Assembly: GCA_964187785.1 (NCBI GenBank)
Contig: OZ076418.1
Location: forward strand, 58,528,001 to 58,592,000
From: Amphiscolops sp. MND2022
Taxonomy: Eukaryota
Reading direction: 5' to 3'
Length of the DNA: 64,000 bases
The position numbers were made by a program, and so were the translations under genes. This document shows positions 1 through 50,146 of the stretch, piece by piece. The notes beneath the pieces are model-generated. The model searched no databases. It saw nothing but the letters and a program-made list of their open reading frames with translations, and was not told where the DNA came from. The first letter of the stretch is position 1. Every line of letters begins with the position of its first letter.

Positions 1-469
1 CTTTTTAACTCAACTAATCTTCATTAAAATCCTATACAGGTGATACAAATTTCTCAATTTTCATTCCTCTGGTACACTTTGGCAAATCTTTTTGAACTAC
101 CTTATAATTAACAACCCTATTCGAACTTTTCTGAATGAACTCTCAGGAATTTTCTACTCTTATGTTACATAGCCTTTCTTCTTACTATGGTACATGAAAA
201 CATTAACATTTCTCTGCCTATGTTATATATAAACTATGATACAAGACGTCTTAAACAATATATACTAGCTAGCACCAAAATATGATACATAAAAGCATCA
301 TCTTCGTAGTACAACTATTGACTCGTTGTTGTCAATCTTCTTACACTTCTTTTGTTTTAGAAACATCTACTTTTCTTCCTCCTCCATCCACATTCATTCA
401 GAACCCACCCACTCTCTCGTCGTTCTATCAAGACTTCCGTCCAAATGTTGGCCCCCGATTCTGAAACAG

Positions 470-866
470 AAGAAAATGTCACAGTGACATCGAACTTTTC
501 AAAAGTCCAAAGTTTAAAGGCTGCCATGTTCCATACAATGGCATTCAAGCTTTCCTGAAAATTGCTTTTCTGAAAGTTCTTTATCACGTCGCTAAAGTAA
601 AGAAAAATAAAATTACTTTCGAACAAAATTCGCGACTACATCTAGATGGCCCAAAAATTGCAATTCGTGAGACCTCATCGAACGTGGTTTTCGGTCTAAA
701 CTCTTCTTTTGCCTCAAAAGACCATTAATTTCGCGCTGCAATCGACGAAGCAATGACTGCTTTTAATAGCACATTACAAGAACTTGGATGTACACAGACT
801 CTCGAGTATTACGACCCACAAGCACATCAAAAACATCCCCCGCAACAACACCCTTTCTATCACTAA
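470..866 (+). pseudogene. Degenerate family A accessory ORF of unknown function
   Basis: Frame 558-866 reads KIAFLKVLYHVAKVKKNKITFEQNSRLHLDGPKIAIRET...KDH*FRAAIDEAMTAFNSTLQELGCTQTLEYYDPQAHQKHPPQQHPFYH*; homologs at 20.9, 39.4 and 45.8 kb. Confidence 0.7.
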
Positions 867-1057
867 TTGACACGAACTTTTGCACTTTTACTCAATGCTT
901 ACCTTTCATCACTCTCTGGATACATCTCTTCTTATTCCTTCATCTTTCCTTGATGATGCTTGCAGATGTTTTCCATTGATCACTCCACCTGAACTTCTTT
1001 ACAACTGAAACACTTCACTGCTCTACGCGCTTCTTTTGATGGTCAACAACATCCATC

Positions 1058-1178
1058 GTCCACATCATCACTATGGTCAGCACTACCCGTCCACATCGTC
1101 ACTTTGGTCAGCACTACCGGTCCACATCGTCACTTTGGCTCATCTCTGGTCAACACCACCCGTCAACATCGTCACTTT
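1058..1178 (+). repeat. Minisatellite, ~30-bp unit x ~4
   Basis: GTCCACATCGTCACTTTGGTCAGCACTACC repeated imperfectly. Confidence 0.85.
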
Positions 1179-2884
1179 CGTCGGCAGCCCACACTGTTTC
1201 TCTGTTGCTCACTTTTCTAACTACCAGTCAACTGTTCCAATACCCGTCAACAAAAGTATTTCAAACTGAACTAATAACTTGTAACAAAAACTAAACTTTG
1301 TAATAATCTTGTCTTCGCATAACCACAAATTTTAATTTCTAAAAAAATTCTAATTATCTCTTGTATAATCTTTTACCCCCCCCCCACCACAATGCTATTA
1401 ACTCCTATATGATGCTATTAACCTTTATTCTAACCACAACTTGTTTTTGTACAGTTTATTTTAACCACAACTTGTAACTACATTATAATTATCTCGTAGC
1501 CAAAATTTGTAATCTCGCCTAATCTTTGGCAATATAAGTTGTATTTCATGTTATGTAATATCATGTAAAAATTCTAAGATTTTTTCTTCTTCCCCAAAAA
1601 ACTGAGCATAATACATTTTTATTGCACTTCTTTTTTCAGTACAAAAATTCTTCTTATCGTACAGAAAAATTTTTCTTCAAAGAACATTCCTATTTTACTT
1701 CATATTCAACATTTTTAGAGTTTGAGACACTTCAAAGTTGAATAAGTTCAAGGTCGAACAAGTTCTAAGATTTTACTTTCGCTCTACTCGTCACTTTTGT
1801 TGAAAACGAACTCTCACTAGAACCTTGACTTTCCAAAACTTCTTCGCTTTTGGTTCAAACAACCGCCAATGTTGGTTCACAACTCATTGACTCCAACAAG
1901 CTTTACTTCTTCAACTTGAAAAAGTTTTCAATTCTGACTAACTCATGTTGATGAACATTCTTTTTCAAACAAGCCGATGGTTGATACGAAAAAATAACAT
2001 GAAATAGTAAACAAGTTGTCAATAATAACTTGAATAAAACTGAAACCTTTTGCACCAAATGAATCATCTATGACGTAAGAAGTCAAATCGTCTTAGGTTG
2101 TTCTCACTCCTTAAGTATGGTACATTTCAGAACAAAACTCATGGATACTACATATGAAACAAATCCATCCATATAACATCTGAAACAAACACTTTAGAAC
2201 TTCTCAATCCCAAAGTGCAGACATAAAATTCTAAATTTCAAAATTCCCGGTTGATTGTGATGCCATGACACATGTCCTCAAAGATTCTATATTCTTGAAA
2301 TAAACCTGAACTCTTAACCCAAGTAAATAATAGATGTAATTCTATTTGGAAACTAATTATCTTTGAAGAAACTTCACTTGATACATCCTGTAACAAGCTT
2401 TTCAGATCCATCCTTTTACTGTCATCTCTTATTAATGTAAATGATTATAACCTACTTTAGTTTGATAGAATATATCTACTCGGAGAAACATAGAATCTGA
2501 TCTACTGAACGGTCTTCCTCTAAAAGAAAGAACTAACTGAGATCTCAGCAAGATTAGGCTTAGAATTAGCCAGCTAAACTGACTTGAAACAACGTTAATC
2601 TGACTTGAAGACTCTGCTGTTAAAATCTTAGACTTCTTATGTCTACAAAAAAGATCTGAAAATAATAACACATTGCATTTTTTACAGCTCAGGATGCGAT
2701 AAAATATATTGTAATTTCAGATTGTAACTAACTCAGCAGAAGAATAACGACAATCTTGTATTCAAGACGACTCCTCATCTAAGAGAGGAACACTAAAATC
2801 TGAGATCTCAATCTGACTTTACATTTGTAAAGGAAAAAGAAGCTAGCTAAGAAACGGTTTTGCTTAAGACTTAGAAACTGCTCA

Positions 2885-3425
2885 TGTATAACTTGAAAGA
2901 CCTAAAAAATATTACACAAATTTTAAGCAGCACATTTGGTGCGACCACAAAAACTATTCTCTTTCTTCTTTTTATTCCACAAACTCTCACCTCTTGCACA
3001 TCTTTTCTTCTCTTTTTCATCCGCTATTTTTTTATTCGACATACAGTCTCTCCACAACTTGGTATTATCTACAGCTATTATCTCCTCGTTCCAGCCAATT
3101 TTCCCTGAAAATTGATTCATGTTGATATTGTTCTGACTACGCACTATACGTAATATCAGTCAGTTAATTTCTTCAACGTTACAACCACTTTTAACAGTGA
3201 TACGTGTTGGTCATTCATTTCCGATCCAACCACAATAAACGTGATACGTGTTGGTAATATCTTTCTCCGTTCCAACAACGACAAACCCGTTTGGTGCTAG
3301 TTTTCCTTTCAACGTTCCAACCGCACACGTGCGATACGTGTTGGTTGCTTTTCAAAAAAGTGCTGTCCGACAATTCCTGCTAGTTTCTTTCTTTTCTAGC
3401 CGTTTGGGTCCTTAAAGTTGGCACA
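2885..3425 (+). repeat. Family A LTR (~541 bp)
   Basis: Starts TGTATAAC, contains TGGTGCGACCAC, ends GTTGGCACA; homologous to 60139-60595 and 17353-17809; three GATACGTGTTGG units at 3198-3345. Confidence 0.75.
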
Positions 3426-4479
3426 TCATCTTTAATTTTTTAAAAACTGGTACGAAAATAGATACAAAATAAACACAAAACTATTAGGCTCAAAAATCTT
3501 ATCCAAAACTATATTACAGGTATATTATACTATATTTTATAGAACAATCATAATAATACCATATTATCCATAGTATATAATATATCAGACGGAAAAAAAC
3601 TTTATAATACATTATCTTATTATTTGATAAATGCCTTCAGCCGATGAAGTTGTAAAAATTGTAATCAACCTTTTACGGATTTTCTTTGCATTCATTGCAG
3701 GTCTTGCATTAATATTTGATCTATTTTTGATTCCTTTTATACCCCAAGTTTAGAACAATCCTTCATTCTACATTTACAATACTTAAAATAGTACTACCTT
3801 TTTGTGGTCTTTTTGGAATATATTATACATTTTGTTCTCGTATACCATATGAAACAAACAGAATATTACTTTTCTTGTGTACTATCCATACTATTGTTGT
3901 TCAAATTCTGTTTGTAGAACAGTTCTTCCCCTATAATACAAATTTTAATACCGAACATCAACTCGTTCATTACATGTACCCTTTATTTAGAAACTATATT
4001 CTACAAAAGTGATTTACAACGATATTTTATATGATACACAATGCTTCCAGCTCCATTTCAAAATAACCTCACCTCAACATATGAACAACCGTTTCCTTGG
4101 TCAAGATATTAAACCATTCCTAAATAACATCATTTTACAATACACGAATCATGTTCCATTTAAAAGAGAAGCACACTCTGTACATACAACTCATTTTACA
4201 AGAACATTTAGATTCAAACTTGGTTTACATTAGATTCAAACTAAATTACATTAGATACAAAACATTGGTTATCAATACATCTCAAAACCCATTTCAAATC
4301 ATTTTAACCCTGTTCAAAACATTAATTTTTGAATAAATTATAGAACAATTCATTCACAAAGTATCCCATTTCCACTTGAGGATGTTTTACTGCAAACCTA
4401 AACAAACTCATAGAAGATAATGAAAATCTAGAACATCCCATATATAGACCTTCTCATCCAGAAAGTCTATGAGAAAAAA

Positions 4480-4700
4480 TCGAATATTTCGAAGTACATG
4501 ATAATGAAGCAAAGATCAAACGACAAGATAATCCTCACTATTGGTTACAACAAGATATTCTACAGAGAACCCAATTCCAGTACAGATTTTTCCAAAAGAT
4601 CATACTCAACGAAGATATTGTACATCAAATTGAAGGTTACTCTCAATTTTTGTTTAAAATTTTTAGCTTCAACTATCAGCTTCTATAAAAAAACAAGATC
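4480..4700 (+). pseudogene. Conserved domain upstream of the family A Gag capsid region
   Basis: HYWLQQDILQRTQFQYRFFQKIILNEDIVHQIEGYSQFL aligns with HHWLTTVILQIHHFQYKFFQNFTLNTETKEQIRIYSLFF at 16290-16480(-). Confidence 0.6.
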
Positions 4701-5629
4701 AGCCTGCTTTTAAAAATTTTCGACAAACATTAACACGTGCAGAATTTTTTCCTTTCGTCATTGACGATGAATACAAACACCCTATTTACAGAGATCCTAC
4801 AAAATTACAAGCACGGTATTTTGAAGTGTAATCATATGATACCAGTTTTTTCGTTGAACACTCAGAAACATCTGATAATAGACGATATTTACCATCTGAT
4901 ACCCATACTGACAATCCTTATTATGATTATGATACTACTACATCACAAAATGAGCAAATTGAAACACTTCATTACTCACAATAATTATTGATTGATACAC
5001 ATCAAAATACTTATGAACTTTTAGATTCGACCGCACAAATTCAAAATTTACTTACCTTTGAAATTACATAAAATTCTCCAGATGACAATAATACAGACGT
5101 CCAAGACACTAAAACTGATACCCATGGTTGCTAGAGTTACTACAGACTCTATCCTTCTTAATGTTGCAAAACGACAAATTGAACAAAAAAAAACGATGAA
5201 AACCAAACTACTTCAATGCAAAAAGACCCATCAACTATAATACGCAAAATTCTGATGATACGTCCCCTCCAACGCTTCCACAACAAATCACAAGAACTTA
5301 TGATCCATCTCCAGTACCTCATCAATTCTTTCCAAACAATACTCCTCATTACTCGCCACAACAAGATTCTCCAAATATGAATATTGTACCGTCTGTTGCT
5401 TCAACTCAATCTCGACATATCATTTTACGTACACCACCATACACCCTGCTCAATCTTGAAATATACAACCATCCAACTTCACTATAAATACAATCCACAC
5501 CAATCCACATAATTATCCTACATCTTCTAGAACACTGTCTGACCTCCATTACCTCTAAGCCCAAACAATCCACTTTCATACAATCATTGTAGTACAATTA
5601 TTCATAAGGGTCAACAACCTCCAACAATG

Positions 5630-6770
5630 TCACCTTGGATCATAACTATACACCCGAAGATTTTTTATAGCACATTGAAGCTCGTGTAACAATTTCACTG
5701 GTTTACAACCCTCAAATGAACATGAAAATAGATTCTGGCACGCTAGACGTATAGTTTTCATACAATGTTCTTTAACAGGTACAGCTCTCAGTTGGAATTT
5801 TTGCCTCCGTGATACTTACAAACAAGATTGATCCGCTTTTGTACAAGCATTCAAAAAACAAATTTCCTCACAAAAGAATGCATATTACGCTCAAGTCAAT
5901 GCTATTACACTTTTCAAAAAGGACAATGAAATAATCCGCCACTTTGCCCTCAAAGTTCAAAAACTAGTTGAAAGAGGCTGGTGTAATGAGAACGCCTCAA
6001 CAATCAACATTAAATGTAATGAAGTTTTCACAAAGGGATTACCAAAAATTCTTAAAGACTTTGCTAACAAAATACAAGTCAATCACACTTTTACTGTTTT
6101 AGAATCCCCAATACCTTTTCATACATTAGTTAAACTTGTTGATGCTGAGGAAATGAGGATATAGCTAATGATAAAATCCGTACATATGATCTTACTTTAA
6201 AAGTAAATAAAATTACGAATAAATTACAATCTCAAACTATTCAACAACAACCAGAACAACTTAAGTTCACCCAATCTAGAGATCCAAATATTAAAGCAAA
6301 GCCTGCATACAAGAAACACTGTTCATATTGCCACAGAACAAATCATTTTATTTCATCCTGTTTCAAAAAACACAGAGAGGGTTTTGATAAAAAAGACGCC
6401 TAAGTGAGATCCAAGTCTCCACAGAAATCTTTTGTACAATATTCTTGGTCTAACTCTACCAACCAATCAAACAGAACTGATGACAAGACAAATGATTATT
6501 ACAACCAATCACGTAGTCGAAGTACCTCACGAAACAACGATCAAAATGAAAATAACGTTTCATCATACGATCAAAAATAATAACTCACATGACAGATATC
6601 GTGCTTTATCACGAGATTGAAACCATTATGACACAAGTACTACTCCTCAATATTACACTCGTTCACGGTATGACAATTATAAACAAGACTCTCGATCGTA
6701 TCGTTCTCCTTACAGATCATATAGATCACCTTAAAGACGCAATTCTCATCCTAGATACAGATCCCGTTCT
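5630..6770 (+). pseudogene. gag: Degenerate Gypsy Gag (capsid, CCHC knuckle, RS-rich tail)
   Basis: LDHNYTPEDF..HIEARVT, QCSLTGTALSW, RHFALKVQKLVERGWCNE, FTKGLPK; CSYCHRTNHFISSC at 6320-6361; stops and frameshifts. Confidence 0.85.
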
Positions 6771-6799
6771 TTGAGATAACACTACACCTAACACTTAAC

Positions 6800-7010
6800 C
6801 TCTAAAACGTTAACCGTTGCTCACCAGACAGAAGTCCCTATATTACATTATGTAACTCTTACATTGAACACAGCTATTGATGCAAATTCTCGTCAAATCG
6901 TTATTCCATTTGCAGTTGCTGATATCAAACATAATACTCTTGGTATTCCATTATTCGAAGAATAAATACTAAACATTAACATACAAGACTTTACATTACG
7001 AAATAGACAC
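6800..7010 (+). pseudogene. pol: Aspartic protease C-terminal fragment
   Basis: TVAHQTEVPILHYVTLTLNT...IPFAVADIKHNTLGIPLFEE, paralogous to 9584-10135. Confidence 0.75.
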
Positions 7011-7125
7011 CTTTCTAAAGAATTTCCTAACCACAATAAATTCACTTCACTCCTGTCAAAAGATTATCCTCACTATAGAAATAACTCTAAAACACAAATT
7101 CGCTTGAAACCCATTTCTTATAAGA

Positions 7126-8187: not shown

Positions 8188-8349
8188 CAAATGCTCCTTC
8201 AACAAATATCAGAACTAATGCTCACTTTAACACTACACTTACGAACCCTTTTATGAATACATCAAATAGGTCAAATATCTCAACATTACAGTACCACCAT
8301 CTACAATTCCTCACACAACAATTTCACAACCAACTTACATAAACTCTTC

Positions 8350-9580: not shown

Positions 9581-9583
9581 AAA

Positions 9584-10135
9584 ATGATAAATTCACAAAC
9601 CCACTCTGACCCAATGAACTTCGAAGTACACATGTATCATCCAACTGAAATGGCAAATGCTGTAACACCTACAAGCTGGTATTACACCCTATACGTACAT
9701 GCACCATCAAGTCAAATTCAACGTGATAGCCCATCACGAGTAGAGATCTCATTTCTTTTAGATAGCGGTGCTTCAATGTCATTGCTAAAATACCCCACTT
9801 ACATCACTCTTCCAAAACTCTTAAATGTTAAACAAAATAACACTCCTAATGCTTCAAAAACTTTGACTGTTGCAAACCAAACCGAAGTACCTATACTACA
9901 CTATGTTAATATAATCTTAAACACAACAATTGAAGACAGTTCCTGTCTCGTTATGGTACCTTTCGCAGTAGCGGACATTAAATTTAATACCTTTGGTACA
10001 CCCTTCTTTGAAGACAATATACAAAATATAAACATACAAGACTCTTCATTACAAATTAAATACCATTCGACAATACACCCCAACTATGCAAAATTCACAT
10101 CACTCTTATCTAAAGACTACCCAAATTTTTCATAA
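9584..10135 (+). pseudogene. pol: Retropepsin protease
   Basis: FLLDSGASMS active-site motif. Confidence 0.9.
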
Positions 10136-11973: not shown

Positions 11974-12029
11974 TCTCATTATGACGAAACGGATCTAAGC
12001 CCTTTCATTTCAATAAAAAAATCAAACCT

Positions 12030-17809: not shown

Positions 17810-20544
17810 TGGTTTCCGATTTGAAGAGAAGGAAGGCGAAAGTACTTTAGGAAGACGCTAACGGAGCAGCAGTACTTAGGTCTTCAAAAACTGTGACAAA
17901 TTGATGGTGAGGACTTTATTTGAGCTGTGAACGATTATAAATCAGATAAGTGCTTAACCGTATAAACTATGGTATTGGATATAAATTAGATACATTAAAA
18001 TTCAAGATACAAAAAAAGACTGGACATTCATATAAGTGGTGGGGGATGGTGATTAAATTTGAGTATAGGTTAATCACTTTATTTGCTCAAACAAATCCAG
18101 AGCACGAAAACGTTCGACGTTACGTTTAGCCTACAGAACTCTAATTAAATTTACAAAAACATGAACCCTGTAATTTGTCTCCATGATGAGATATAGAAGC
18201 TCAAGTAGAAAAAAAAACAGAACGTTTTTTTTTTTAAATCAACTTTTTCGCCAGAAAAAAAGGCGTCATAGTTGTTGACGGAAACTTTGTTGGTCCAAGA
18301 AGTGGCGTACATCCGTGCTGTTTTTCTCTAAAGAGAATGGTTTTGAATCTTCTATCAGTATTGAGAAATATGAGCTACATATTTGAACACAAGTTCGACG
18401 ATATAGATTGCTTGATCAAGTTACGAAACCATAGACTCTGTATTTGGTCTCGGTTCTGAGATATGAGGAATCGAATATGGGAAATAGTTAAAAAGAGGTT
18501 TTTTCAAAATTTTCTAAAAAAAACTTATGAAACCGAATTTTTTCCGAATTTTTTTTCGACGAAGATGTAGCCTAGGATACTGCGCAACTTTTCGCGACAA
18601 CATGGTATCTATATCTATTCTTTGCTCTGAGAAATTTGCCTAACAAGTTTGAAAAGTTGACAGATGTCACAAAATCTGCGAAAAAACGTCACCATATATG
18701 CACCTTGCAAAACTCGAGCCTCAAAAAGCGAAAAGATTTTCAAAAATTAGTGTACACAGTTTTGAAGCGATATTCTTGGATACTGTCTAGCCTTGTAACT
18801 TGCGTTCTTGTTGCCTTTCAGAAAAAAAACAAGGAAGTTGAGCAAATTGTACTGATTCTGGATTTATTGGACTTGGGTGAGGCTGAGAAGAAAAAACTTA
18901 TAAAGTCACAAGGTGATCATCGTAAGATCCAGCCATTTTTCTGCGAAAGGCGCTAACTATATGAACACACTCATCAAAACAATGGTACACCTTTGTGCAC
19001 AAAACAAACTTTTTCCATGAGGTTGGTTTTATTCCATCCAATATTTAAACATCATAGACTGTTACCAGTGTACTGCTTAAAACTTATGTAATGTTTTTTT
19101 TGAGTTTTTCAAGTTATACATGAGAAGTTTCTAAGTCTTTAGCGAAACCGTTTCTTAGCTAGATTATCTTTCTGTACAAATGTATGTCAGACTGAGTCAG
19201 ACTGAGATCTCAGATTCTAGTATTTCTCTCTTAGATGAGAAGTCGTCTTGAATACAAATTCGACTTACTCTTCTGATGAGTTAGTTACAATTACTTCTGA
19301 GATTACAAGAGATTATATCGCATTCAGAGATTTACAGATAGATTACTTCTATGATGAAACCATTATCTAATGTCAAATCTAACAATGAAGTATTAACCTT
19401 GAACGAGATGACATCTGTCAAGTTATTAGGTCAAGAGGTTCGATATATTTCATGATTATGAAAATACTTGAGGACATGCATCATGACATCACAATCAACC
19501 GGAAATTTCAAATGAAAAAAAGTATCTGCACTTTTTGGAGTAGTGTGTCTCACAAGATTCTGGTTCAATTGAGTTTAGGTTCCTTTGTTCTAAAGAGCAT
19601 GTATCATACTTAAGGATTGAGAACAACCTAGGACGGTTTAACTTCTTATGTTTTTATACGTTTCACTTTGGTGCAACATTGTTGAGGTCAGAAGTTTTCG
19701 ACTGACAGTTTTGTTCAAGGTATTGTTTGACAACTTTTATTTTTCCTGAGTTTTGAGGCATGAAAGCATGTGAGTATATTATCTTTTCGTCGGTGTTGAA
19801 AACTAAAGAGGTTTTCTTCAAATGAGCAATCGTGAATGAAAACGTTTCGAGTTAAAGAAAATTGACAGAATTGTTAATGAGTTAGGAAACAACTTTTGCG
19901 GGCAGTGAACAAAAATTGAAGAAGTCAGTGAAAGCCAAAGTTCGTTTTTATTTTCAGCGAAAGTGAAGAGCAAGCAAGAGTCAGCGTTGAGAAAGTGTTT
20001 CAAACTTGGAGTGAAAAAATCTTAAGTAGTGTTGGGACAATACTAATTTATCAAAGTTTGGAAGTGGCTTTCAGAGCTTTTGTTTTGAGATGTACTGAAA
20101 ATTTGAAAAATTGTTTGCACCAAGAATGTAATAGGTGTACTAAAGATAAAATTTTGTGAATGTACCATACGTTGATAGTAAGATACACATTTTATACTTG
20201 GTTATTATTTTAAGATTACACTATAATAAAGTTTTAATAGTTAAGATAAGAGAATACAAGTTTGTTATTGAAGCTCTACATACGATTTCAAGAAAAATAT
20301 TTGAATATAGCACTTGAATACACTGTTAGGATTAGAATAACACTAATAGGATTATACAAGTATATTGGGTTATTAAATGAAGATGCTATGTTATTGACCG
20401 TGCATTATAAATGAAGCATAAATGGAGCATCATGATTATAGAAAAAGAAATTTGAAACAGTTTTTGAAGAGTGAAGTGTGGGTTATTGGCAAGGAGTGGT
20501 GACGAAACGATAACATCATTAGAGTTTTTGTGGAATAGTTGTGA

Positions 20545-20895: not shown

Positions 20896-21300
20896 TCATC
20901 CATATAGTGGACGTTGTTGCGGTACGTGGTAGTGATGTGTTGTAGGGTCAAAGGCTTCAAAATGTTGAGTGTAGCCGAAATCCTTCATTGTGGCATTGAA
21001 GGCATCAGAAGCTTCGGCGAGAGTGTGAAGGAAATAGTGGTCCATTGTAATAAAGGATGTGTTTTTGACAAAGTGCCTCAGAAGCGGTTCCGCAGATTGC
21101 GATCTTGGGACCGTCGAAATGAAAGCGGGGATATTGCTCAAAGTTTATATTCTTCTTTTTTTTTCATTTTGCAAACCTTATTTTGAACTTTGAGAAAAGA
21201 ACCTTTGGTAGAATTAGTAACATTGCCATGATTGATTTCAATGGCGAGTTTAAACACAAGCGTTTGAGAAATAGCGGCTTCAGGACTATTTTCATTTGTG
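20896..21300 (-). pseudogene. Family A accessory ORF (homolog of 470-866)
   Basis: SFLKVQNKVCK..NINFEQYPRFHFDGPKIAI...MDHYFLHTLAEASDAFNATMKDFGYTQHFEAFDPTTHHYHVPQQRPLYG*. Confidence 0.7.
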
Positions 21301-22340
21301 TTGAGGCAATTTTCAGTTTAGATGCCAGAAGATCCATGACGAGCGAATGGAAGATTGGAAGCAAGCGGAATGTCTTGACAAAAGAAGGTTGAATATGTCG
21401 ATAACGGCGTTGAAGAAGAAGAAGAAGATAAAGTGGACTGCAAAGTAGATGCAGCGTGTGTGACAGTGAGTGTAAGCCAAGAAGGCAACAAAGAAGGAGA
21501 TGGAGATAGAGGAGTTTCTGAAACAAGGGAAGTTTGGATACAGCGAATCATTTTGGAACTGTTTATGGTGTACTACATGGTGATATGAGTTTGTGTTCTT
21601 TTGAAGTTCTATTTGTACTTTGAAGTATCATACAAAAGAAAAAGTTTGTGTTCTATGAAAGGTTCCAAAAACAAAAGGAACATTATATTGTAACTTCAGT
21701 AAAAAAAAACTTGAGTTAAGTAGAAAAACCATAAAGGACTGTAAAAATGTAAAACCGTTACCTGTAGAATGGGTACAAATAAAAAAGGTGCCAGAAAATC
21801 CAAGGAGTTTCAAATATTTATATTGCCTGTATGAAGTTGAGATTAGTTACTTAGAGGAAAGAAGATTGTTCAATGCTTCAAGAGTAGATTGAACAGCTTG
21901 TGAAGACTGATTAAAGAATTGAGAGTCTAGATTCAAAGATGGAAGGAGTCTTGAAGTTCATGTATAGTGATCGACGAGTCCAGTAAGAGTTGTGGGAGGT
22001 GTTTTATTGTGTCTTTTGTACGTGTCGAGTTTTTCAGTCATTCCTTCGAGTGACCGAAGGCTGAGCCTAACAGTCATTTTGTCAGTAGTAATTTGTGAAT
22101 TTCGAGAACGAGGTCTATGTCGTTCACTGTGGGTGGATTTGTGTTCTATATTTTGTTCAGATTTGACCATAAAAGATATGACTTTTGCAGAGATGAAGAA
22201 TAGTTCATTATTTTAGTACAATTGTTTGGACAGAGCGGTATAATACGATGTATCTTCGTCACCAAGAGGTCATCACATAGGATTTTTAATCACAGTGCGC
22301 AGTTTGACTATTGTTGTAGGTATGTTGCAAGGCAACACAG

Positions 22341-25300
22341 AATCATTGAAGTGTATCATAGATTCTTGAGGTATTATCAATGATCTAGACGTATCATTGT
22401 GTGGAAGGAGGCAAAAGTTCTGTAGTAGTGTTTTATAGGGTCAAAGTTCCTGAGATATCCAGTGATTTTAGAGTGGTCAAGCGATCATTATAGAGATTGG
22501 TCATAGTGAAACAAGAACTATTGTTGCAGTTGGCGAAATTGTCATTTTGCGCTTTTTATAATGACGAAATTTCATATACGTTTGATTATGAGTGATTTTT
22601 TGTGCAACAGAGAGGATTGTAGGATCATGTTCGTCCGTTTTCAAGTCTACGATTGACGAACGAAGGTAGTTAAGTTGTAAAGAGAAGATTTTGACACCTT
22701 TATAAAGCCAATATTGATAGGGTGACATCATTTTAGAACCAATAGATGCTTGATTCTTGTCATTCAGTTTAAAGGTATAGTCAGTAGGATGCATGTACAA
22801 CAAAGTAAAATGAGACCTAAAAATAAAACGATCATGAGAGAGAAGTGGTATCAAGTGATCATCTCGATTAGTCTAGAGTGAGGGTTTAGAAGGTGAAGGT
22901 GTTCCATGAGAATGTTCCGATTGTTCATAGATATGCATTTCTGGAGATATTTGTGAATTCGAGGACAATTTCGTTCGCTATTCAGATTCTTACATTCTTA
23001 AGAGGGTTGGTCAGAAGTTGCATTGGAAGAATCTTGTTCCATGGCTTCGAGAAAAAGAACCGGAGAATCATTAAATAGAGTTGAGTTGAGAGATCAGTAT
23101 TATTTGTTTGTTGTTCAAGTTGACTATGTAGGTTTTGCATTATAAGTTGCGCTTGAGTCATGATAAAGTTTTTTTGAGGAAAAATTGTACTTACGAGTAG
23201 ATTTATCTTGTGTTTTAGGAGGAGGAGCAAATACTCCTACAATACATTTTTTTGTCAAGTAAGTACATTTTTTTGTCAAGGCGGAAAGAATTTTTTGTCA
23301 GAGAAGTAGCAGCTGTATATCAAGGAGTAGAGAGTCAGAATGACCAGTTCTAAAATGATGGCAGAGTAAAGGAGTAATTTGATTTGGAAATGATTTTGAC
23401 AGGACTTTCATTTCCATCATTGACAGATTGTGAAATTAAAAGATAATCATTGGGATTTGAATTGACAGTAGATGAAGGCAATATAGAACTTTGTAATGGA
23501 GAAGTATTGACAGTTGTGATAACATTATTAGTTAGTTGATTGATTTGAAGTGTATCATGACACAAAATCATTGACGTGTATCATAGATTCTTGAGGTATT
23601 ATCAATGATCTAGACGTATCATTGTGTGGAAAGAGGCAATAGTTCTGTAGTAGTGTTTTATAGGGTCAAAGTTCCTGAGATATCCAGTGATTTTAGAGTG
23701 GTCAAACGATCATTATAGAGAGTGGTCATAGTGAAACAAGAACTATTATTGCAGTTGGCGAAATTGTCATTTTGCGCTTTTTATGTTGACGAAATTTCAT
23801 GTACGTTTGATTATGAGTGATTTTTTGTGCAACAGAGAGGGTTGTAGGATCATGTTCGTCCGTTTTCAATTCTACGATTGACAAGCGAAGGCAGTTAAAT
23901 TGTAAAGAGAAGATTTTGACACCATTTTAAAGCCAATATCGATAGGGTGACATCATTTTAGAACCAATAGAAGTGAAATAGTCTTGATTCTTGTCATTCA
24001 GTTTGAAGGTATAGCCAGTAGGATGCATGTACAACAAAGTAAAATGAGCCTTAAAAATAAAACGATCATGAGAGAGAAGTGGTATCAAGTGATCATCTCG
24101 ATTAGTCTAGAGTGAGGGTTTAGAAGGTAATATCGGTGGATTTTTTGGTGAAGAAAAAATGCTGGATCTTTCAATATTTCATATCGTTTTTTTGAAGGTG
24201 AAGGTGTTCCATGAGAATGTTCCGATTGTTCATAGTTATGCATTTCTTGAGATATTTGTAAATTCGAGGACAATTTCGTTCGGTATTCAGATTATTACGT
24301 TCTTAAGAGGGTTGGTCAGAAGTTGCATTGGAAGAATCTTGTTCCTTGGCTTCGAGAAAACGAACCGGAGAATCATGAAATAGAGTTGAGTTGAGAGATC
24401 AGTATTATTTGTTTGTTGTTCAAGTTGACTATAAAGGTTTTGCATATTAAGTTGCGCTTGAATCATGATAAGGTTTTTTGAGGAAAAATTGTACTTACGA
24501 GTAGATTTATCTTGTGTTTTAGGAGGAGGAGCAAGTACTCCTACAATACATTTTTTTGTCAAGTAAGTACAATTTTTTGTCAAGGCGGAAAGAATTTTTT
24601 GTCAGAGAAGTAGCAGCTGTATATCAAGGAGTAGAGAGTCAGAATGACCAGTTCTAAAATGATGGCAGAGTAAAGGAGTATTTTGATTTGGAAATGATTT
24701 TGACAGGACTTTCATTTCCATCATTGACAGTTTGTGAAATTAAAAGATAATCATTGGGATTTGAATTGACAGTAGATGAAGGCAATATAGAACCTTGTAA
24801 TGGAGAAGTATTGACAGTTGTGATAACATTATTAGTTAGTTGATTGATTTGAAGTGTATCATGACACAAAATCATTGAAGTGTATCATAGATTCTTGAGG
24901 TATTATCAATGATCTAGACGTATCATTGTGTGGAAAGAGGCAATAGTTCTGTAGTAGTGTTTTATAGGGTCAAAGTTCCTGAGATATCCAGTGATTTTAG
25001 AGTGGTCAAGCGATCATTATAGAGAGTGGTCATAGTGAAACAAGAACTATTATTGCAGTTGGCGAAGTTGTCATTTTGCGCTTTTTATGTTGACGAAATT
25101 TCATGTACGTTTGATTATGAGTGATTTTTTGTGCAACAGAGAGGATTGTAGGATCATGTTCGTCCGTTTTCAAGTCTACGATTGACGAGCGAAGGAAGTT
25201 AAATTGTAAAGAGACGATTTTGACACCATTTTAAAGCCAATATCGATAGGGTGACATCATTTTAGAACCAATAGAAGTGAAATAGTCTTGATTCTTGTCA

Positions 25301-26170
25301 TTCAGTTTGAAGGTATAGCCAGTAGGATGCATGTACAACAAAGTAAAATGAGACTTAAAAATAAAACGATCATGAGAGAGAAGTGGTATCAAGTGATCAT
25401 CTCGATTAGTCTAGAGTGAGGGTTTAGAAGGTAATATCGGTGGATTTGTTGGTGAAGAAAAAAATGCTGGATCTTTCAATATTTCATATCGTTTTTTTGA
25501 AGGTGAAGGTGTTCCATGAGAATGTTCCGATTGTTCATAGTTATGCATTTCTTGAGATATTTGTAAATTTGAGGACAATTTCGTTCGGTATTCAGATTAT
25601 TACGTTCTTAAGAGGGTTGGTCAGAAGTTGCATTGGAAGAATCTTGTTCCATGGCTTCGAGAAAACGAACCGGAGAATCATTAAATAGAGTTGAGTTGAG
25701 GGATCAGTATTATTTGTTTGTTGTTCAAGTTGACTATGTAGGTTTTGCATATTAAGTTGCGCTTGAATCATGATAAGGTTTTTTTGAGGAAAAATTGTAC
25801 TTACGAGTAGATTTATCTTGTGTTTTAGGAGGAGGAGGAGGAGGAGGAGCAAGTACTCCTACAATACATTTTTTTGTCAAGTAAGTACAATTTTTTGTCA
25901 AGGCGGAAAGAATTTTTTGTCAGAGAAGTAGCAGCTGTATATCAAGGAGTAGAGAGTCAGAATGACCAGTTCTAAAATGATGGCAGAGTGAAGGTGTAAT
26001 TTGATTTGGAAAAGATTCTGACAGGACTTTCATTTCCATCATTGACAGATTGTGAAATTAAAGATAATCATTGGGTTTTGAATTGACAGTAGATGAAGGC
26101 AATATAGAACCTTGTAATGAGAAGTATTGACAGTTGTGATAACATTATTTGTTAGTTGATTGATTTGAAG
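22341..26170. repeat. Tandem triplication, units of ~1225, 1303 and 1302 bp
   Basis: AATCATTGA.GTGTATCATAGATTCTTGAGG at 22341, 23566 and 24869. Confidence 0.92.
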
Positions 26171-26188: not shown

Positions 26189-26655
26189 TTAGATTAAATA
26201 TTGTCTTGTTGCTAAGTCTCTTTGGACGTTTGGTATAGAAAGGACGTGGTGAAATAATTCTAGAGTATCATAGTTTTTTGAAGCAAAGTTGTTGAAAGCG
26301 TTTATAGCTGGAAAGACATATGGTATTTCATGAGGATCTAGAACTAATTTATCTGAAAAATATCCATTTATTACTGAATGAGGATTTGGTAGTCCTGTAT
26401 GCATATTGAAACCAATGGTATATGTAACAAAGAGTTCGGAATATTGTATTGCATAAAGGGGTTCTCGTTTACCACAAAAAGTTTCGGCATGCTGAAATAT
26501 TTCGAAACGCGAAAGACCAGGGTTATGTGGGTTTTGTGCATGTGGAGCGCGGACATATGGGAAGCGAGTTCCTTTAATGCCTGATGTTGTAGCAGATGTG
26601 TTAGGTAATGAAGAGTGTACAAAACCTTCATTAGTTACAAAAGACGCCATTAGTT
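26189..26655 (-). pseudogene. env: Internal fragment of an env-like glycoprotein
   Basis: GIKGTRFPYV...FEIFQHAETFCGKREPLYAIQYSELFVTY; homologous to 49.8-50.1 kb; the listed ATG is probably not the true start. Confidence 0.6.
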
Positions 26656-37899: not shown

Positions 37900-39826
37900 A
37901 CGTGTAGTCCTTTGCTCTCTTAGCTAATCCGATGCTTCTCATTTACATTTTAGCTCAATTATTTGTTCATTCATTTATTCGCGCAAAGGGCTCATAAAAT
38001 TATATCTTTCAAAGGTTTACAGGAAGATTACTTCTAAAATGAAACTTAAATGAGATTGTTAGTAATTGTCAGCAACTCTAATTCTAAAGTGTTTAAATCG
38101 GTAATGTTATTGGGTTTAAGAGATCATATAACTTTCAAGATTATAAAAATGCTTGAGGACATACATCATACATCATGACATCACACCAATCTGAAGTTTG
38201 AAAGAAGTTCCTCAAACAAAACCTGTAGTAGAAACTCTTATCATTTCAAACTCTGAAACAAAAAACTTCTGAAACACCAGTTCAGAAGTTTTTTTGTTTC
38301 AGAGTTAAAATGACAAGAGTTTGTACTAAAGGTTTTGTTTTAGGGTGTCATGTACTTGATCTAAAGATTATGTTTGAGGTGTCTACAGTACTTGAGGAGT
38401 AAGAAGATTATTTGACGGTTTTAACTTCTATGTCATTTGACCGTTCACAATGGTGCAACGTTTCGGCAGTTTGAAATTTAGACTGGCAGTTTTGTTCAAG
38501 TTATTGATTGACAACTCTGGCTATTTGAACTTCTTCTGAAAGTCTACTCTAGTGTCTAGTCATCGGCCTTCAAAAAATGTTCTTCAACATGAGTTTTCAA
38601 AAGTGAACCCATATTGGCGGATTGTGAAGAAAGTGTGAAGAAGTCAGAAATATTCAAAGGTCTCATTCGAGATCTATTTCATTTTCAAACAAAGTAAGGA
38701 TAGTCGGCTGATAAATGTTTTTACTTTCCAAACTTTTTAGTAAACGGTGTTCAAAAAGGAGAGAATTTTGTTCTACAAAACCGAAAGACAGTCAAAAAGG
38801 TATTACAGTAAATAAGAAGTAAAACATGAAGGATTTTTGTACTAAGCACCAAATAAAATATATATTGATAGAAATAATGGTCAAAATAGTTACAAGATCA
38901 CAAGATTAAATAAGATTGTTGAATACACAATGAGCACTAATTATTGATACAAGTACGGATAATCATAAGATTATACGATTACACGAGTACAATAAGCTTA
39001 TAGTGACGATTATATGATTAAGAATTGTCAAGATTAAATGGTTATAGTTAAATTATAGTCAAACGTTTGAAGCATTGAGGAGTTGGCAGTTGACAAGAGA
39101 GTTCTGCAAGGTGATGGTGTCGAGAAACAGCGACGAACGTGACTACGATGCGAAGACATCTGGTTGTGCCAAAGAAGAGCGGTGGTGAGCTGAGGTCGTG
39201 AAGAGAAGTCCAGTGGAGTAGAGTTATCTTAGGTCATCAGTGGAGGTCAAGATGATGCAGCAAAGAAGTTGTCAACAGGGCAAAGAAGTGACGAATGCGG
39301 CAATGAAGTGGCAAAGAAAGTGAAGATAGTGAAAAGTACAATTGGAGCCATAAAAGGTCAGTACAGCGGATGTTGTTGAGGAGGATGAGTTTGATGTATA
39401 GTTGGATCATACTGCTCCAATTTTTGATGATCTCCAAAGTCAGGCATCACTTAATTAATTGCTTGTTAGGCTTCTTCTAGGGCAGCGTGGAAGAAGTGAT
39501 CTTTCTTGGTGAAAGTTTCTTGGTGAGAGTCGATAATAAAAACAGCATTCGATGTTTCAAAGATTGCAATGTTAGGTTGGTCCATATGTAATCGGTGTAT
39601 TGCTCAAACTTTATTTACTTTTTCTGGATTTTGCAAACGTTATATAAAACTTTGTGCCGTTGTGAAAGTTGGCGGCTTTCAAATTTTGAGCTGTGGTAGT
39701 AGATGAAAACATTTTAGGTGCATGGGGAGCCATTGCCTGGTTGATGCGAGAATGGAACTAACGAAGACAGAGGCAAGTCTTGGTAGAAAGGCGGGGCAGC
39801 AAGCCAAAGAGGGTCAAAGACGGTAG
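37900..39826 (-). mobile_element. Duplicated 3' fragment of a family A element
   Basis: Accessory ORF at 39358-39700 (KVLYNVCK..IKFEQ..RLHMDQPNIAIFET...LEQYDPTIHQTHPPQQHPLY*) plus 3' UTR. Confidence 0.7.
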
Positions 39827-44083: not shown

Positions 44084-46999
44084 GGACGACAAACGGACCA
44101 CCAGTCGTTTGAAACTGCGAAACTACAAAATTTTTTATTCATAATTTTTTACATGTTGCATTTGATGGTCGATTGATGGAAATGTATACTAAATGTCGTG
44201 CAAACAAGTAAAATTCGCTGAAAATGGAATAGCTTCTGCACAATGCATAAATAAAACTAAACTAGCAAGGTGAAAGAAAACGCGTTCATACTGTCTACCG
44301 CACTAGTCAGATTGGACGTGTAGTCCTTTGCTCTTTTAGCTAATCCGATGCTTCTCATTTACATATTAGCTCAAACATTTGTTCATTCATTTATTTGCGC
44401 AAAGGGCTCATAAAATTATATCTCTTTCAAAGGTTTACAGGAAGATTACTTCTATAATCAAACTTTAATGAGATTGTTAGTAATTGTCAGCAACTTTAAT
44501 TCTAAAGTGTTTAAATCTGTAATGTTATTGGGTTTAAGAGATCATATAACTTTCAAGATTATAAAACTACTTGAGGACATACATCATGACATCACACCAA
44601 TCTGAAGTTTGAAAGAAATCCCTCAAACAAAACCTGTAGTAGAAACTCTTAACATTTCAAACTCTGAAACAAAAAAACTTCTGAAACACCAGTTCAGAAG
44701 ATTTTTTGTTTCAGAGTTAAAATGACAAGAGTTTGTACTAGAGGTTTTGTTTTAGGGTGTCATGTACTTGATCTAAAGATTATGTTTGAGGTGTCTACAG
44801 TACTTGAGGAGTAAGAACATTATTTGACGGTTTTAACTTCTATGTCATTTGACCGTTCACAATGGTGCAACATTTCGGCAGTTTGAAATTTAGACTGGCA
44901 GTTTTGTTCAAGTTATTGATTGACAAATCTGGCTATTTGAACTTCTTCTGAAAGTCTACTCTAGTGTCTAGTCATCGGCCTTGAAAAAATGTTCTTCAAC
45001 ATGAGTTTTCGAAAGTGAACCCATATTGGCGGATTGTGAAGAAAGTGTGAAGAAGTCAAAAAGATTCAAAGGTCTCATTCGAGATCTATTTCATTTTCAA
45101 ACAAAGTAAGGATAGTCGGCTGATAAATGTTTTTACTTTCCAAACTTTTTAGTAAACGGTGTTCAAAAAGGAGAGAATTTTGTTCTAAAAAACCGAAAGA
45201 CAGTCAAAAAGGTATTACAGTAAATAAGAAGTAAAACATGAATGACTTTTGTACTAAGCACCAAATAAAATATATATTGATAGAAATAATGGTCAAAATA
45301 GTTACAAGATCACAAGATTAAATAAGATTGTTGAATACACAATGAGCACTAATCATTGATACAAGTACGGATAATTATAAGATTATACGATTACACGAGT
45401 ACAATAAGCTTATAGTGACGATTACATGATTAGGAATGGTCAAGATTAAATGGTTATAGTTAAATTATAGTCAAACGTTTGAAGCATTGAGGAGTTGGCA
45501 GTTGACAAGAGAGTTCTGCAAAGTGATGGTGTCGAGACACAGCGACGAACGTGACTACGATGCGAAGACATCTGGTTGTGCCAAAGAAGAGCTGTGGTGA
45601 GCTCAGGTCGTGATGAGAAGTCCAGTGGAGTAGAGTTATCTTAGGTCATCAGTGGAGGTCAGGATGATGAAGCAAAGAAGTTGTCAACAGGGCAAAGAAG
45701 TGACGAATGCGGCAATGAAGTGGCAAAGAAAGTGAAGATATTGAAGAGTAAAATTGGAGCCCTAAAAGGTCAGTACAGCGGATGTTGTTGAGGAGGATGA
45801 GTTTGATGTATAGTTGGATCATACTGCTCCAATTTTTGATGATTTCCAAAGTCAGGCATCACTGAATTAATTGCTTGTTAGGCTTCTTCTAGGGCAGCGT
45901 GGAAGAAGTGATCTTTCTTGGTGAAAGTTTCTTGGTGAGAGTCGATAATAAAAACAGCATTCGATGTTTCAAAGATTGCAATGTTAGGTTGGTCCATATG
46001 TAATCGGTGTATTGCTCAAACTTTATTTACTTTTTCTGGATTTTGCAAACGTTATATAAAACTTTGTGCCGTTGTGAAAGTTGGCGGCTTTCAAATTTTG
46101 AGCTGTGGTAGTAGATGAAAACATTTTAGGTGCGTGGGGAGCCATTGCCTGGTTGATGCGAGAATTGAACTAACGAAGACAGAGGCAAGTCTTGGTAGAA
46201 AGTCGGGGCAGCAAGCCAAAAAGGGTCAAAGACGGTAGCTGAAGAGAAGAACTTTCTAAAACAAAAGAAGTCTGAATAGTGGATTTTTCGATGGCACTTT
46301 TGATTTGTACTATAAACGTTCAAGTGCTAAAAGTCCTTCATGACAGTGTTCCAATGTTTTTATGTTCAATCATTTATTTTAAAGTTCTAAAGACTTCTTT
46401 GGTGTTCAAAAGATAAAGAATGATCAATTGTGCCAAAAAGATAAGAAAAGATTATGTGAACTATACGTGAGAAACAGTTTTGAAATGTTACCTGCATTAC
46501 AGTGGAGTGTTGTTCCAAAAATCAATAACAGTTTGTATTACCTGTGTAGTTGTAACAATATTTTTGAGAAGAACAAAGATTATGCCCTGATTCTATGGCC
46601 GATTGAATTGCCTGCGAAGATTGAGAGCTTCGTTGTCAATCCAAATCAACATTTTGTCTAAAACGTACTAGAACGAGATCGATGGCGTTCAATATTGGTA
46701 TATTTAGGTTCTATATATTGATGAGATTTGACCATTAATGAAATGACCTTTGCTGATATAAAAAGGGGTTCATTACATGAATAGGATTGTTTAGTAGGTG
46801 GCGCAAAATTTGAAGTTTCTTTGTCGTCAAGAGGCGAAGGAACAAGATGACAAGATATTTGAAAACTGCGAGCGAATTGGTTTGACTTCTTGTGTAAGAA
46901 TGTTGCAGGGCAAGGGCAATAATAATATGTCTAAATGTATCAAACACTCTTGAGGTACAATAAGTGGGCGAGATGTATCATTATCAGGAATTAGACAGA

Positions 47000-47860
47000 A
47001 ATATTGTTTTCTGGGATCATAGTTTCTGAGATATCCGAGTGATCAATTGTATATAGATTGGTCATAGGGAAAGGGTTAGTGTACAAGTGAAGTACACTTG
47101 CCAGTAGCAAAATGGAGTCTTGTGGCTTTTTGTATTGAAGGAACTTCGTATATGTTTGACGATAAGTGGTTTTTTGTGCAACTGAGAGGAATGACGGATC
47201 ACTTTTATCCGTTTTCAAGTCAACTATTGACAGGCGAAGAAAATTGAATTTCAGAGAGAAAATTTTAACACCTTCGTCAAGCCAATATTGGTATGGTGAC
47301 ATTATTTGAGATGCAACAGAGGTGAAAAGTCTTGATTTTTGTCATTACGTTTGAAGGTAAAGTCTGTGGGATGCATGTAAAACAAAGTAAATTGCGATTT
47401 GAAGATGAACCACTCTTGAGAGAGGGTTGGTATCAAGTGATCATCTCATAGTAATTTTGGGGTGATCACGTGTATATTGATCTGTCATTGTGATAGGAGA
47501 AGTGAATTTGTAATTTGCCAAAATGTAGTTCTGTTGTTTTTTGTACTGAAGATATTTTGCATCTGGTTGATGATGGGTAGCTTTTTGTGAGATAGAAGGA
47601 AAGGAAGGGTCAGTTTCATCTGTTTCCAAATTGTATAAAGACGGGCGAAGCAAGTTATGTGTAATGAGAAAAATTTTACACCTTTTTCAAGTCAATGTTG
47701 GTAAGGAGGCATGGTTTCTGAAACAATCGAGGTGAAGAAATATTGATATTTAACATTCAGTTTGAAGGTGTAGTCAGCAGGATGCATATATAAAGAAATT
47801 AGTTGTGATTTGAATGTGAAGTGGTCGTGCGAAAGAAGTGGTATTAAATAGTTAAAAAGA
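47000..47860 (-). pseudogene. Two tandem copies of a ~130-aa module of unknown family
   Basis: LIP.LS...F.FKSQ....YMHP.D.TFK.N...LR.S...L.TD..DPSF.S..QK.T..Q...K.LQYKK. Confidence 0.55.
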
Positions 47861-48789
47861 TATATCCATTCGTAGAGAGTGAATGTTTCGAAGGTAGAAT
47901 AGGTTTTTATACAGGTGAAGAAAAAAACGCAGAATAGTTTCTTTTTTCGTACTTCTTTTTTGGCGGTAGTGGTGTTTCACGAGAATCATCATTATCTATT
48001 TCAGGAAGTGTACGTTTTTTCGGAGAGATAGTGTTTTGTTCCATTTGTTCGGAACTTGTAGTAGGTTCGTCTTGGTCCATTGTTTCAAGGAAAAGAACCG
48101 CGGAATCGTTAAACAAATAATGATTTATAAGATCAGTAGTAGTCTGTCCAAGACATGTCTGCAAGTCAATTTGTGCTTGAGGCATTTTTGAAGACTTAAG
48201 ATGAAATTACAGTAACGGGTGGCTTTGTCTGGAGTTTTGGGTGGATTTGCAAGTACACGAACTTTAATAGTAGGATCTACATATTGTCATTTCCAATAAT
48301 GGTGTGACTTCATGTGGAGAAAAGAGCTCAATTTTGGAAAGTGATTTTATTTGGAAAGATGAAGTTGTTTCGAAGTGGAGGTAGCTGGGTGATTTAAGTT
48401 GGAGTTTTAAAGAACATTGTTTAGTTGTTTATAGGAGATAGTGAAAAGTCAGTATGACTTGGTTTAAGAAGATGGCGGAGTTAAAGAGTAACTTGTTTTG
48501 GAATATATTCTAACAGGGTTTTATTTCATTTTTGTTAGGGGTGTTATTCGGAGGATACTCATTGGATTTAGTTTTGAAGTTGAATTATGAGCTACTGTAG
48601 AATTTGGTAGTGATGACGTAGTGCTACTGATGTCGTCCTTATTATTGGGTTTATTAAAAGATCTTTTTCGTTTAGGAAAGAGTTGAATTCGTGTCATAGT
48701 TGGAATTCGTTTTGTATAAAAATGTGGCGTTGAAATAATTCCAGATGGTTTAGTAGAGATATTTGTTAAATGATCTGAATTATCAGAAG

Positions 48790-50146
48790 ATTCATCTTAT
48801 GGCTGTTAATAATTGTTGACAGAGGAACTTTTTGTGAATTTTTAACGGTGGTAGTGGTTTTTTGGTATGATCATCACTTAGGTCATTGACTAATTCGTAT
48901 GTGAAAATGTTGAAAAATCCACGTGCAAGAGAGCTAAGGAAATTAATAGTTTGATTAGGATTAGGTTTTTTTAGAAATTTGTTCAAAAAATTTTACATTT
49001 AGTGTGAAAACGGTTTGTATGAAAAGTAATGTTGAGAAATAAATTCCACTTTTTCGAAGGATCTAACATGGGTAATAAAATAAAAGCATCAGAGACCGAT
49101 GCAGGAGTAAAAAGTGGAGTTAGATTAGGGAGATTATCATGTAGTCCATTACGTAAAGTACTGTAAGGATTATGATTGTCAATTGGGGGAGAAAGCATCA
49201 AAATTTGTAGTATCAGAGTGTTTTGAAAAGAGAATCCAGTTCCAAGGATGGTAAAGTAAGGCATTAGCATATGTACCAGCATCTTGGGCTGTCAAAGTAA
49301 TGGGGCGTATTGTATTTTTGATTCGAGTTGGTTTGAACATAAATGGTGGTTTAAGTTTAACTGATTCAGGTCTAAGAATGAAAAAAACTTGGTCATCAGA
49401 ATCAGGATCAAGTTCAATAATATTTCGTGGGTTGTTATCAGATGTTTTTGGAGTAGTATAGTCATAAGTTCGTCTTGTAATAGGATCGACCTACATGAGA
49501 TTATCCTTGAAGTGGATAGGTGTACGATCGAATCTTAAAGAAATACGGCAATTTGTGGATTTTGTACTGACGTTGCAAGTATTGTAAGGAGTTGATATCG
49601 TTCTGATTCGCATACTGTAATAAGAGTATTCAATTCATGTACTGTCATGAAGCGAAAAACATGATTAATTGCAAAATCCTAATTTGTATTAAAATGAGTA
49701 TCGTAGTATATTGTCTACTGTAGCAAAGTTGTTTGAATCGTTGAGTGCTGAAAATACATTTTAATTTTTGTGAGGATCTAAAACTTCTAAAAGTCGTGGT
49801 AACCTGAATCGGGATCAATTGTGTTGCATAAAGTGGTTATGGTTCAATACAAAAAGTTTGAGCATGTGGAAATACTTCAAAACGTGAAAGACTGGGGTTA
49901 TGTGGGTTTTGTGTATGTGGAGCATGGACATATGGGAAACGAGTTCCTTTAATGCCATATCTTGTATCAGGTTTATTTGGTATTGAAGACTGTACAAAAG
50001 AATCAGCTTCAATCCAAAATCAGTCTGCAATTTTTGTCATTCGTCCAATAAAGTCTTGTAATGGAAAGATGAGACAAATGTCATCACTAAACCAAACTAA
50101 GGTATAACGAGTTTCAGTGGTTGGTCTACAGAAACCATCAGCGAAT
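48790..50146 (-). pseudogene. env: env-like glycoprotein, class III fusion (herpes gB / chuvirus G-like), C-terminal half
   Basis: DGFCRPTTETRYTLVWFSDDIC; ELNTLITVCESERYQLLTILATSVQNPQIA; FDRTPIHF..VDPITRRTYDY; C-terminal region ending ARGFFNIFTYELVND. Confidence 0.65.

Follow-up and report, generated by a model that had tools for sequence, protein, structure and literature searches.

ORF5, a selected and spliced orphan accessory gene of a gene-rich, env-carrying Ty3/gypsy element in Amphiscolops

The window analysed here, a 64,000-nucleotide stretch of contig OZ076418.1 of Amphiscolops sp. MND2022 (GCA_964187785.1, positions 58,528,001 to 58,592,000), carries four copies of a small reading frame, hereafter referred to as ORF5. 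The preliminary description had picked out a conserved peptide motif at four stretches, and this motif was found at all of them. With an open young copy of ORF5 from elsewhere in the same genome as query, tblastn matches lie at 448-863 on the forward strand (copy 1, E 6e-45) and, on the reverse strand, at 20902-21290 (copy 2, E 8e-23), 45773-46107 (copy 3, E 2e-21) and 39361-39695 (copy 4, E 8e-21); the lowest E value among 100 shuffled ORF5 queries was 0.024. It had also been proposed that the DNA is hard to align although the peptide is kept, and a comparison of the three distinct copies agrees with this, as blastn aligns at most 119 nt (E 5e-4 to 1e-12) and tblastx reaches E 1e-16 to 1e-26. 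The starts initially given for the frames are too late, the real ATGs lying upstream at 445, 21337, 46145 and 39733. The 39358 copy matches the 45770 one at 99% identity, both being part of a single 3.7-kb segmental duplication, and the window therefore holds three independent copies. Each of these has ORF4 upstream and a 3' UTR and LTR downstream, and all four copies are interrupted by stops or frameshifts. The features are listed below, with a slash marking splice junctions.

1..27, forward: 3' end of ORF4, copy 1, stop at 25-27 (tblastn -125..24, 78% identity; sequence)
40..360, forward: ORF4-ORF5 intron, copy 1, from donor D2 (CAG/GT, 12 nt past the ORF4 stop) to the acceptor TTTTAG/AAAC
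360..464, forward: exon Y, copy 1, a 34-codon Ser/Thr/Pro-rich frame past the acceptor, overlapping the ORF5 ATG
445..866, forward: ORF5 copy 1, ATG to stop, with a frame change and about 13 codons missing near 555-561, and an internal stop at 726-728
867..2253, forward: 3' UTR, copy 1 (blastn against the 3' UTR of a young copy)
2254..2643, forward: 3' LTR, copy 1, matched part (72% over 396 nt against a young LTR)
19073..19493, reverse: 3' LTR, copy 2
20896..21337, reverse: ORF5 copy 2, frameshifts near 21155 and 21071
21518..21761, reverse: D2 intron, copy 2, CAG/GTAAC to TTTCAG/AAAC
21853..25536, reverse: ORF4, copy 2, tandemly duplicated
23194, 24498 and 25804, reverse: donor D1 (CTC/GTAAGT), copy 2, preceding each ORF4 repeat
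26267..26641, reverse: env fragment, copy 2
39358..39733, reverse: ORF5 copy 4, segmental duplicate of copy 3 (99%)
45770..46145, reverse: ORF5 copy 3, stops and a frameshift near 46006
46256..46541, reverse: D2 intron, copy 3
46703..48185, reverse: ORF4, copy 3
48967..50145, reverse: env, copy 3, ending at an assembly gap (N run, 50147-50346)

Downstream of the 3' LTR of copy 1 follow the leader and gag of the next element. Elsewhere in the window, rearranged pieces of gag-pol belonging to this element family lie nested together, along with another integrase, at 4087-14723 (forward), 27929-28564 (forward) and 52202-52678 (reverse), and a weak DUF1759 match suggests a BEL/Pao-type element.

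In its young copies, the host element is about 18 kb long, with the order gag-pol, ORF2, env, ORF4, ORF5 and 3' UTR, LTRs of about 420 bp that are 99-100% identical, and a 4-bp target-site duplication. One such copy possesses identical 421-bp LTRs with TG...CA ends, and a primer-binding site that begins TGG, 2 nt behind the 5' LTR. The products are gag-pol (about 2700 aa), ORF2 (about 420 codons), env (901-920 aa), ORF4 (442-473 aa) and ORF5 (150-159 aa), and the 3' UTR spans 1.1-1.5 kb. Pfam identifies gag, and a pol with RT, RNase H and integrase in Ty3/gypsy order. The RT is closest to that of Ty3 among solved structures (E 1e-37), and one relative is named Ty3-G Gag-Pol; foamy and gammaretroviral enzymes match at E 1e-18 or weaker. 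The env protein matches Monjiviricetes_fusion in Pfam (PF24664, E 2.9e-23, above the cut-off) and has an N-terminal hydrophobic segment, 16-17 Cys and 10-12 glycosylation sequons. By these features this is a Ty3/gypsy element whose env, placed after pol, is assigned by sequence to the gB/chuvirus type, with a class III-type fusion glycoprotein. It is very abundant, with 2819-3406 candidate places in the 1.07-Gb assembly by protein searches (150 scored each time).

ORF5 begins with an ATG of its own about 2 kb past the env stop, and has neither homology to, nor frame continuity with, env or pol. It had been placed between env and the 3' UTR; it does lie directly before the 3' UTR, but the ~450-aa ORF4 intervenes after env. 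Elements with near-identical gag-pol starts and different ORF5 termini (L111-L122, L129-L130) hint at exchange of the 3' region. In the 5' leader (L041, about 5250-5400), two or three repeats with inverted ends are conserved in both young subfamilies, and are candidate packaging or protein-binding sites; Rfam gave no credible match for the leader and 3' region. An acceptor-like site in the 3' UTR, about 730 nt past the ORF5 stop, is conserved in all five aligned elements. A cluster of single-exon host genes flanks two element insertions (L035-L039, C2:4.205-4.253 Mb), and carries an N-terminal motif that I take to be RING-like.

Two further genes are found around env. ORF2 (L042:4470-5726, about 420 aa) fills 1.3 kb between pol and env, is strongly selected, and is without an early Met. 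A conserved CTG marks where its homology between subfamilies starts. The next base is G in 14 of 15 aligned rows, and A stands at -3 wherever the flank is visible, so that a CUG start is possible; the end of ORF2 overlaps the env start. ORF4 (L042:8621-9964, about 450 aa) is a second selected orphan, for which Pfam, PHROG and ESM Atlas gave no match and no longer relatives were found; a stretch of it may resemble an Sm/LSm barrel.

ORF5 is a real accessory gene, kept by purifying selection. Between two young subfamilies, identity falls from 95% in RT to 82% in env, 74% in ORF4, 69% in ORF2 and 67% in the ORF5 core, where codon positions 1, 2 and 3 are 72, 83 and 44% identical. Synonymous sites are saturated in the pairwise dN/dS comparison of the young subfamilies. 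For the codon analysis, 98 natural open frames were reduced to 79 unique ones of 122 codons, with broken copies left out. The overall dN/dS is 0.107, not near 1 (LRT 2467 against 1), with 0.051 on internal branches and 0.183 on terminal ones, the latter biased downward by the exclusion of broken copies and by the use of protein similarity to find most of the set. In the comparison of the two young subfamilies, dN/dS is 2.4-2.8 when the sense frame is shifted, 1.5-1.8 in two of the antisense frames, and 0.23-0.28 in the antisense frame that shares third positions. The variants shared within the commonest subfamily comprise 19 non-synonymous and 111 synonymous changes, against a neutral expectation of 3.3 to 1. 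Site models show no class above 1 (0.06, 0.13 and 0.25), and M2a equals M1a, giving no sign of positive selection on ORF5. The gene had been described as formerly selected; selection stands, but it is not merely past, since ORF5 is intact in young copies with identical LTRs.

The region upstream of ORF5 carries the marks of an intron. An acceptor-like sequence, TTYYAG/RAA, lies 60-200 nt upstream of the ORF5 ATG in 93 of 130 copies (shuffles: mean 0.9, maximum 4), and 0-1 times in each of four flanking windows; in 69 of these 93 the first ATG past it is in the ORF5 frame. Likewise a donor, D2 (CAG/GTRA), is found 12 nt past the ORF4 stop in 82 of 130 copies, with 0 of 130 in a control window. 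As the copies scored had also supplied these patterns, I turned to intron-less copies as an independent test. Reverse transcription of spliced RNA is expected to leave such copies in the genome. A genome-wide search for the exon-start pattern without a preceding intron returned 15 matches, with none for the reversed control, and in every one of them D2 is joined precisely to the acceptor; with the intron present, the pattern has 694 matches. The ten D2-spliced copies examined whole all possess two LTRs, 98-100% identical. Mapped on a tree built from the neighbouring part of ORF4 (31 rows, left of 37 after removal of 6 that were less than 80% alike), the intron-less label requires 7 changes, at least 5 of them forced, and a single change in 0 of 200 bootstrap trees, although template switching could have spread one intron-less allele and inflated this count of independent losses. 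Two intron-less elements carry other large deletions, one within gag-pol and the other within the leader (L256-L257, L262-L263).

A second genome-wide pattern gave six matches, namely four point-mutated acceptors and two copies joined in another way. In the latter, which have two LTRs, a donor in the env-ORF4 gap (D1, C/GTTAGT) is joined to the same acceptor, removing 1743 nt that include all of ORF4. D1 was found in 25 of 32 elements, and reads C/GTAAGT before window copy 2. Neither ORF4-skipping copy has an ATG within 200 nt upstream of the junction, and downstream of it the ORF5 ATG comes first; by skipping ORF4, the D1 splice thus makes the ORF5 AUG the first nearby AUG. These copies show that two donors, one before and one after ORF4, are used with one shared acceptor, and demonstrate spliced element mRNA indirectly, from genomic DNA only, through precise intron-less copies. 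A donor-like site in pol is unjoined in all of the 30 matches examined, out of 42. A small hydrophobic ORF starting in the intron was considered and rejected, as the upstream ATG is present in only 8 of 60 copies.

The 87 nt from the acceptor to the ORF5 ATG show no selection when read in frame with ORF5, where dN/dS is 1.4-1.8 with 4 stops in 26 copies, while in the frame fed by D1 they give 0.44-0.54 and no stops. A wider set of this exon Y, preselected for openness, gives 0.51 versus 1.08 and 1.68 in the other frames. On the other side of the intron, 30-45 codons without an ATG precede D1 (exon X; 23195-23310 on the reverse strand of the window, with its repeats, and about 8400-8550 in L042). 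In 14 copies, exon X has a dN/dS of 0.27 with 1 stop, against 1.40 (18 stops) and 1.34 (55 stops) in the other frames, and it joins exon Y in frame. X-Y is therefore probably a hidden sixth gene of about 70-100 aa that lacks a visible AUG and is predicted to overlap the ORF5 start. An Ile codon followed by G, which stands near the exon X start in several subfamilies, suggests a non-AUG start, the alternative being an unseen upstream exon. Exon Y stops 14-20 nt past the ORF5 ATG in three subfamilies, and through an ATGA overlap in 5 copies of a distant one, an arrangement that suggests coupled translation.

The ORF5 protein is basic (pI 8.8-9.3), with a Lys cluster near residue 65 and 1-2 Cys. 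Its N-terminus reads Met-Ala-Pro and the maximum 19-residue hydropathy is 0.8-1.2, which indicates no membrane segment; a fusogen of the sORF2 or FAST kind was ruled out on the lack of a transmembrane segment and of an N-terminal myristoylation motif. The C-terminus is Pro/Gln-rich and aromatic, and its P-[FL]-Y ending is missing from the commonest young subfamily. Pfam, which finds no gag, pol or env domain, as had been proposed for this separate selected gene, has no match at all for the reference ORF5 and only scattered weak ones among 87 members. Searches of the PDB by sequence and by profile returned nothing significant, NCBIfam matches to ORF5 are weak and far below the cut-off, and the ESM Atlas gave no usable match. 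A PHROGs hit (phrog_13579, E 9.8e-5, residues 8-121) is probably due to chance, being found in 8 of 87 members and with phage tblastn at E 1-2.

Two structural models converge on two helices, a small sheet and a helix, and both are weak (pLDDT 69 and 67, pTM 0.43 and 0.41). At E 0.001 or below, Foldseek found no match for these weak models (model 1 against PDB and BFVD, model 2 against BFVD), and the best VIA scores were Z 5.7 (49 aligned, helical hairpin only) and Z 4.7 (62 aligned, rmsd 4.6). Since the models are weak, the absent fold matches do not establish a new fold. The alpha-beta-beta-beta-alpha order of the dsRNA-binding domain agrees with the secondary structure of weak model 1, but Pfam finds this domain in 0 of 87 members, hhalign against four host domains gives a probability of 0.4%, and it is absent from the fold matches of the weak model.

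A search for homologues gave 595 proteins, all of them unnamed ENA entries among the 120 listed, and 184 cluster representatives, of at most 316 aa among the 150 listed; two longer ORF5 forms that were matched, of 287 and 347 aa, are unnamed. Two distant homologues, searched back, match this genome at 98% and 100%; judged by these two, the family may occur only in this species or close kin. There was no ORF5 relative among 343 candidates from JGI metagenomes.

How ORF5 is expressed can be proposed from the splice sites. The D1-spliced RNA would be its mRNA, such that a subgenomic RNA would yield ORF4 if D1 is ignored and ORF5 if D1 is used. Ribosomes would reach ORF5 by leaky scanning past the AUG-less two-exon frame upstream, or by reinitiation after it. 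About 2% of the matching integrated copies derive from spliced RNA, a figure that counts copies and not RNA, and so the packaged genome is mostly unspliced despite live splice sites. The element must consequently carry unspliced RNA past working splice sites, and my tentative preference is that ORF5 acts here, as a regulator similar to Rev or CERV that would help unspliced genomic RNA escape splicing or leave the nucleus. This would fit with ORF5 being on the most fully spliced form found, and with a basic, soluble protein with a Lys cluster. Homology to Rev or CERV was not detected in Pfam or PDB, and the weak models have no clear fold match. ORF2, ORF4 or the X-Y peptide could be the regulator instead, or unspliced RNA could be exported by an RNA element alone. 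A broader proposal, which I think less likely than not, is that a Ty3/gypsy lineage has independently evolved a six-gene genome of the complex-retrovirus kind, with gag-pol, a possibly CUG-started ORF2, env, ORF4, a hidden two-exon non-AUG gene and ORF5, in which alternative donors would switch between ORF4 and ORF5, and ORF5 would be a regulator of RNA export or splicing with an undescribed fold.

Other roles have to be weighed against that of an RNA regulator. ORF5 follows a Monjiviricetes-type env, and its basic character and aromatic, Pro/Gln-rich C-terminus would suit a virion or assembly protein, a matrix-like adaptor linking the capsid to the envelope glycoprotein or membranes in budding. 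It is also in every element retrieved, though the elements were selected by having ORF5. This role is nevertheless unlikely, as no viral protein in BFVD or PDB matches the fold of the (weak) models, the AUG-less frame upstream would keep the protein at low abundance, and the commonest young subfamily lacks the C-terminal P-[FL]-Y.

Suppression of silencing is a frequent role of small, basic accessory proteins. If ORF5 countered a host defence (piRNA or RNAi silencing), this would partly explain the very high copy number of 2819-3406 candidate places, and its lower conservation than the enzymes (67% against 95% for RT between young subfamilies) would be consistent with such a role. I consider this improbable to a similar degree, since no site class is positively selected, the fastest being at 0.25, and the likeness to a dsRNA-binding domain is unsupported by hhalign (0.4% against four host domains) or by any fold match.

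A transcriptional transactivator of the LTR, comparable to Tat or Tas of complex retroviruses, would fit the position of ORF5 between env and the 3' LTR, its spliced expression and its basic soluble product, and the conserved leader repeats could serve as its binding sites; the protein has no acidic activation region, Cys-rich motif or known DNA-binding fold that could be found, which makes this role rather improbable. Finally, that the frame is non-functional, or a piece of env, pol or ORF4, is hardly credible: ORF4 and ORF5 are in frame after D2 splicing in 30 of the 37 copies scored, but the linker, with a dN/dS of 1.4-1.8 in the ORF5 frame, is not under selection there, and in one subfamily its young copies contain stops, so that an ORF4-ORF5 read-through is rejected, while ORF5 itself has a dN/dS of 0.05-0.11 and no env or pol match in Pfam.

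The comparison with known systems that follows draws on portions of the published reports. Errantiviruses with a gB/chuvirus-type env (Chary and Hayashi, PMC13524379) are described there with LTRs, gag, a pol of PR-RT-RH-IN and env downstream. The present element shares their multiple near-identical young copies and gag-pol-env order, but differs in its length of 18 kb, in the 1.3-kb ORF2 between pol and env, and in the genes after env. The prefilter described in PMC13524379 allowed POL-ENV gaps of up to 1 kb and regions of up to 10 kb, extended further by hand for some phyla, and a term search of its main text returned no passage on 'accessory' or 'extra ORF'.

In the sections of the reports considered, accessory proteins are found in other Ty3/gypsy elements. 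CERV of C. elegans Cer1 (PMC10309623) is made from a spliced mRNA and its role in export has been shown. As with CERV, ORF5 is spliced and belongs to a Ty3/gypsy element whose genomic RNA retains usable splice sites; judged by its description, CERV is a large protein of three domains that has a Cys loop, unlike ORF5 with its 150 aa, 1-2 Cys and no family match. The sORF1 and sORF2 of the Drosophila MDG1 group (PMC11952523) are small, selected accessory ORFs, as is ORF5, but are reported mostly upstream of gag, on the unspliced RNA of env-less elements, and sORF2 is a membrane protein, whereas ORF5 is located after env, spliced, and without a membrane segment. Further invertebrate LTR elements have a spliced or internally started env RNA, or captured extra ORFs, as described for the Tor elements of Oikopleura (PMC4402516) and the ORF3s of bdelloids (PMC5408684). 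Each of these has one third ORF, against three or four orphans besides env here, and the bdelloid ORF3s are recognisable enzymes or fusogens, unlike the present orphan genes.

No description of the element or of the ORF5 protein was found in the literature searched, which covered titles and abstract starts, with subscription journals outside. ORF5 is a selected, spliced orphan accessory gene of an unusually gene-rich enveloped retrotransposon. Complex retroviruses possess small genes around or after env (rev, tat, tas), alternative donors spliced to a shared acceptor, and a two-exon overlapping frame. The element described here likewise has small genes after env, alternative donors leading to one acceptor, and a probable two-exon overlapping frame, and because its RT is nearest to Ty3 and not to foamy or gammaretroviral enzymes, such a layout would be convergent. 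Alternatively spliced accessory genes are a hallmark of the complex vertebrate retroviruses, while in Ty3/gypsy elements accessory genes with a known role are single cases only (CERV, sORF2). If the reading is true, an abundant invertebrate-type element with env and three or four selected orphans would be a convergent complex retrovirus, and would offer a direct route to asking how the balance of spliced and unspliced RNA is set. The precise intron-less copies map its splice sites in an assembly without RNA data, an approach that is transferable to other elements.
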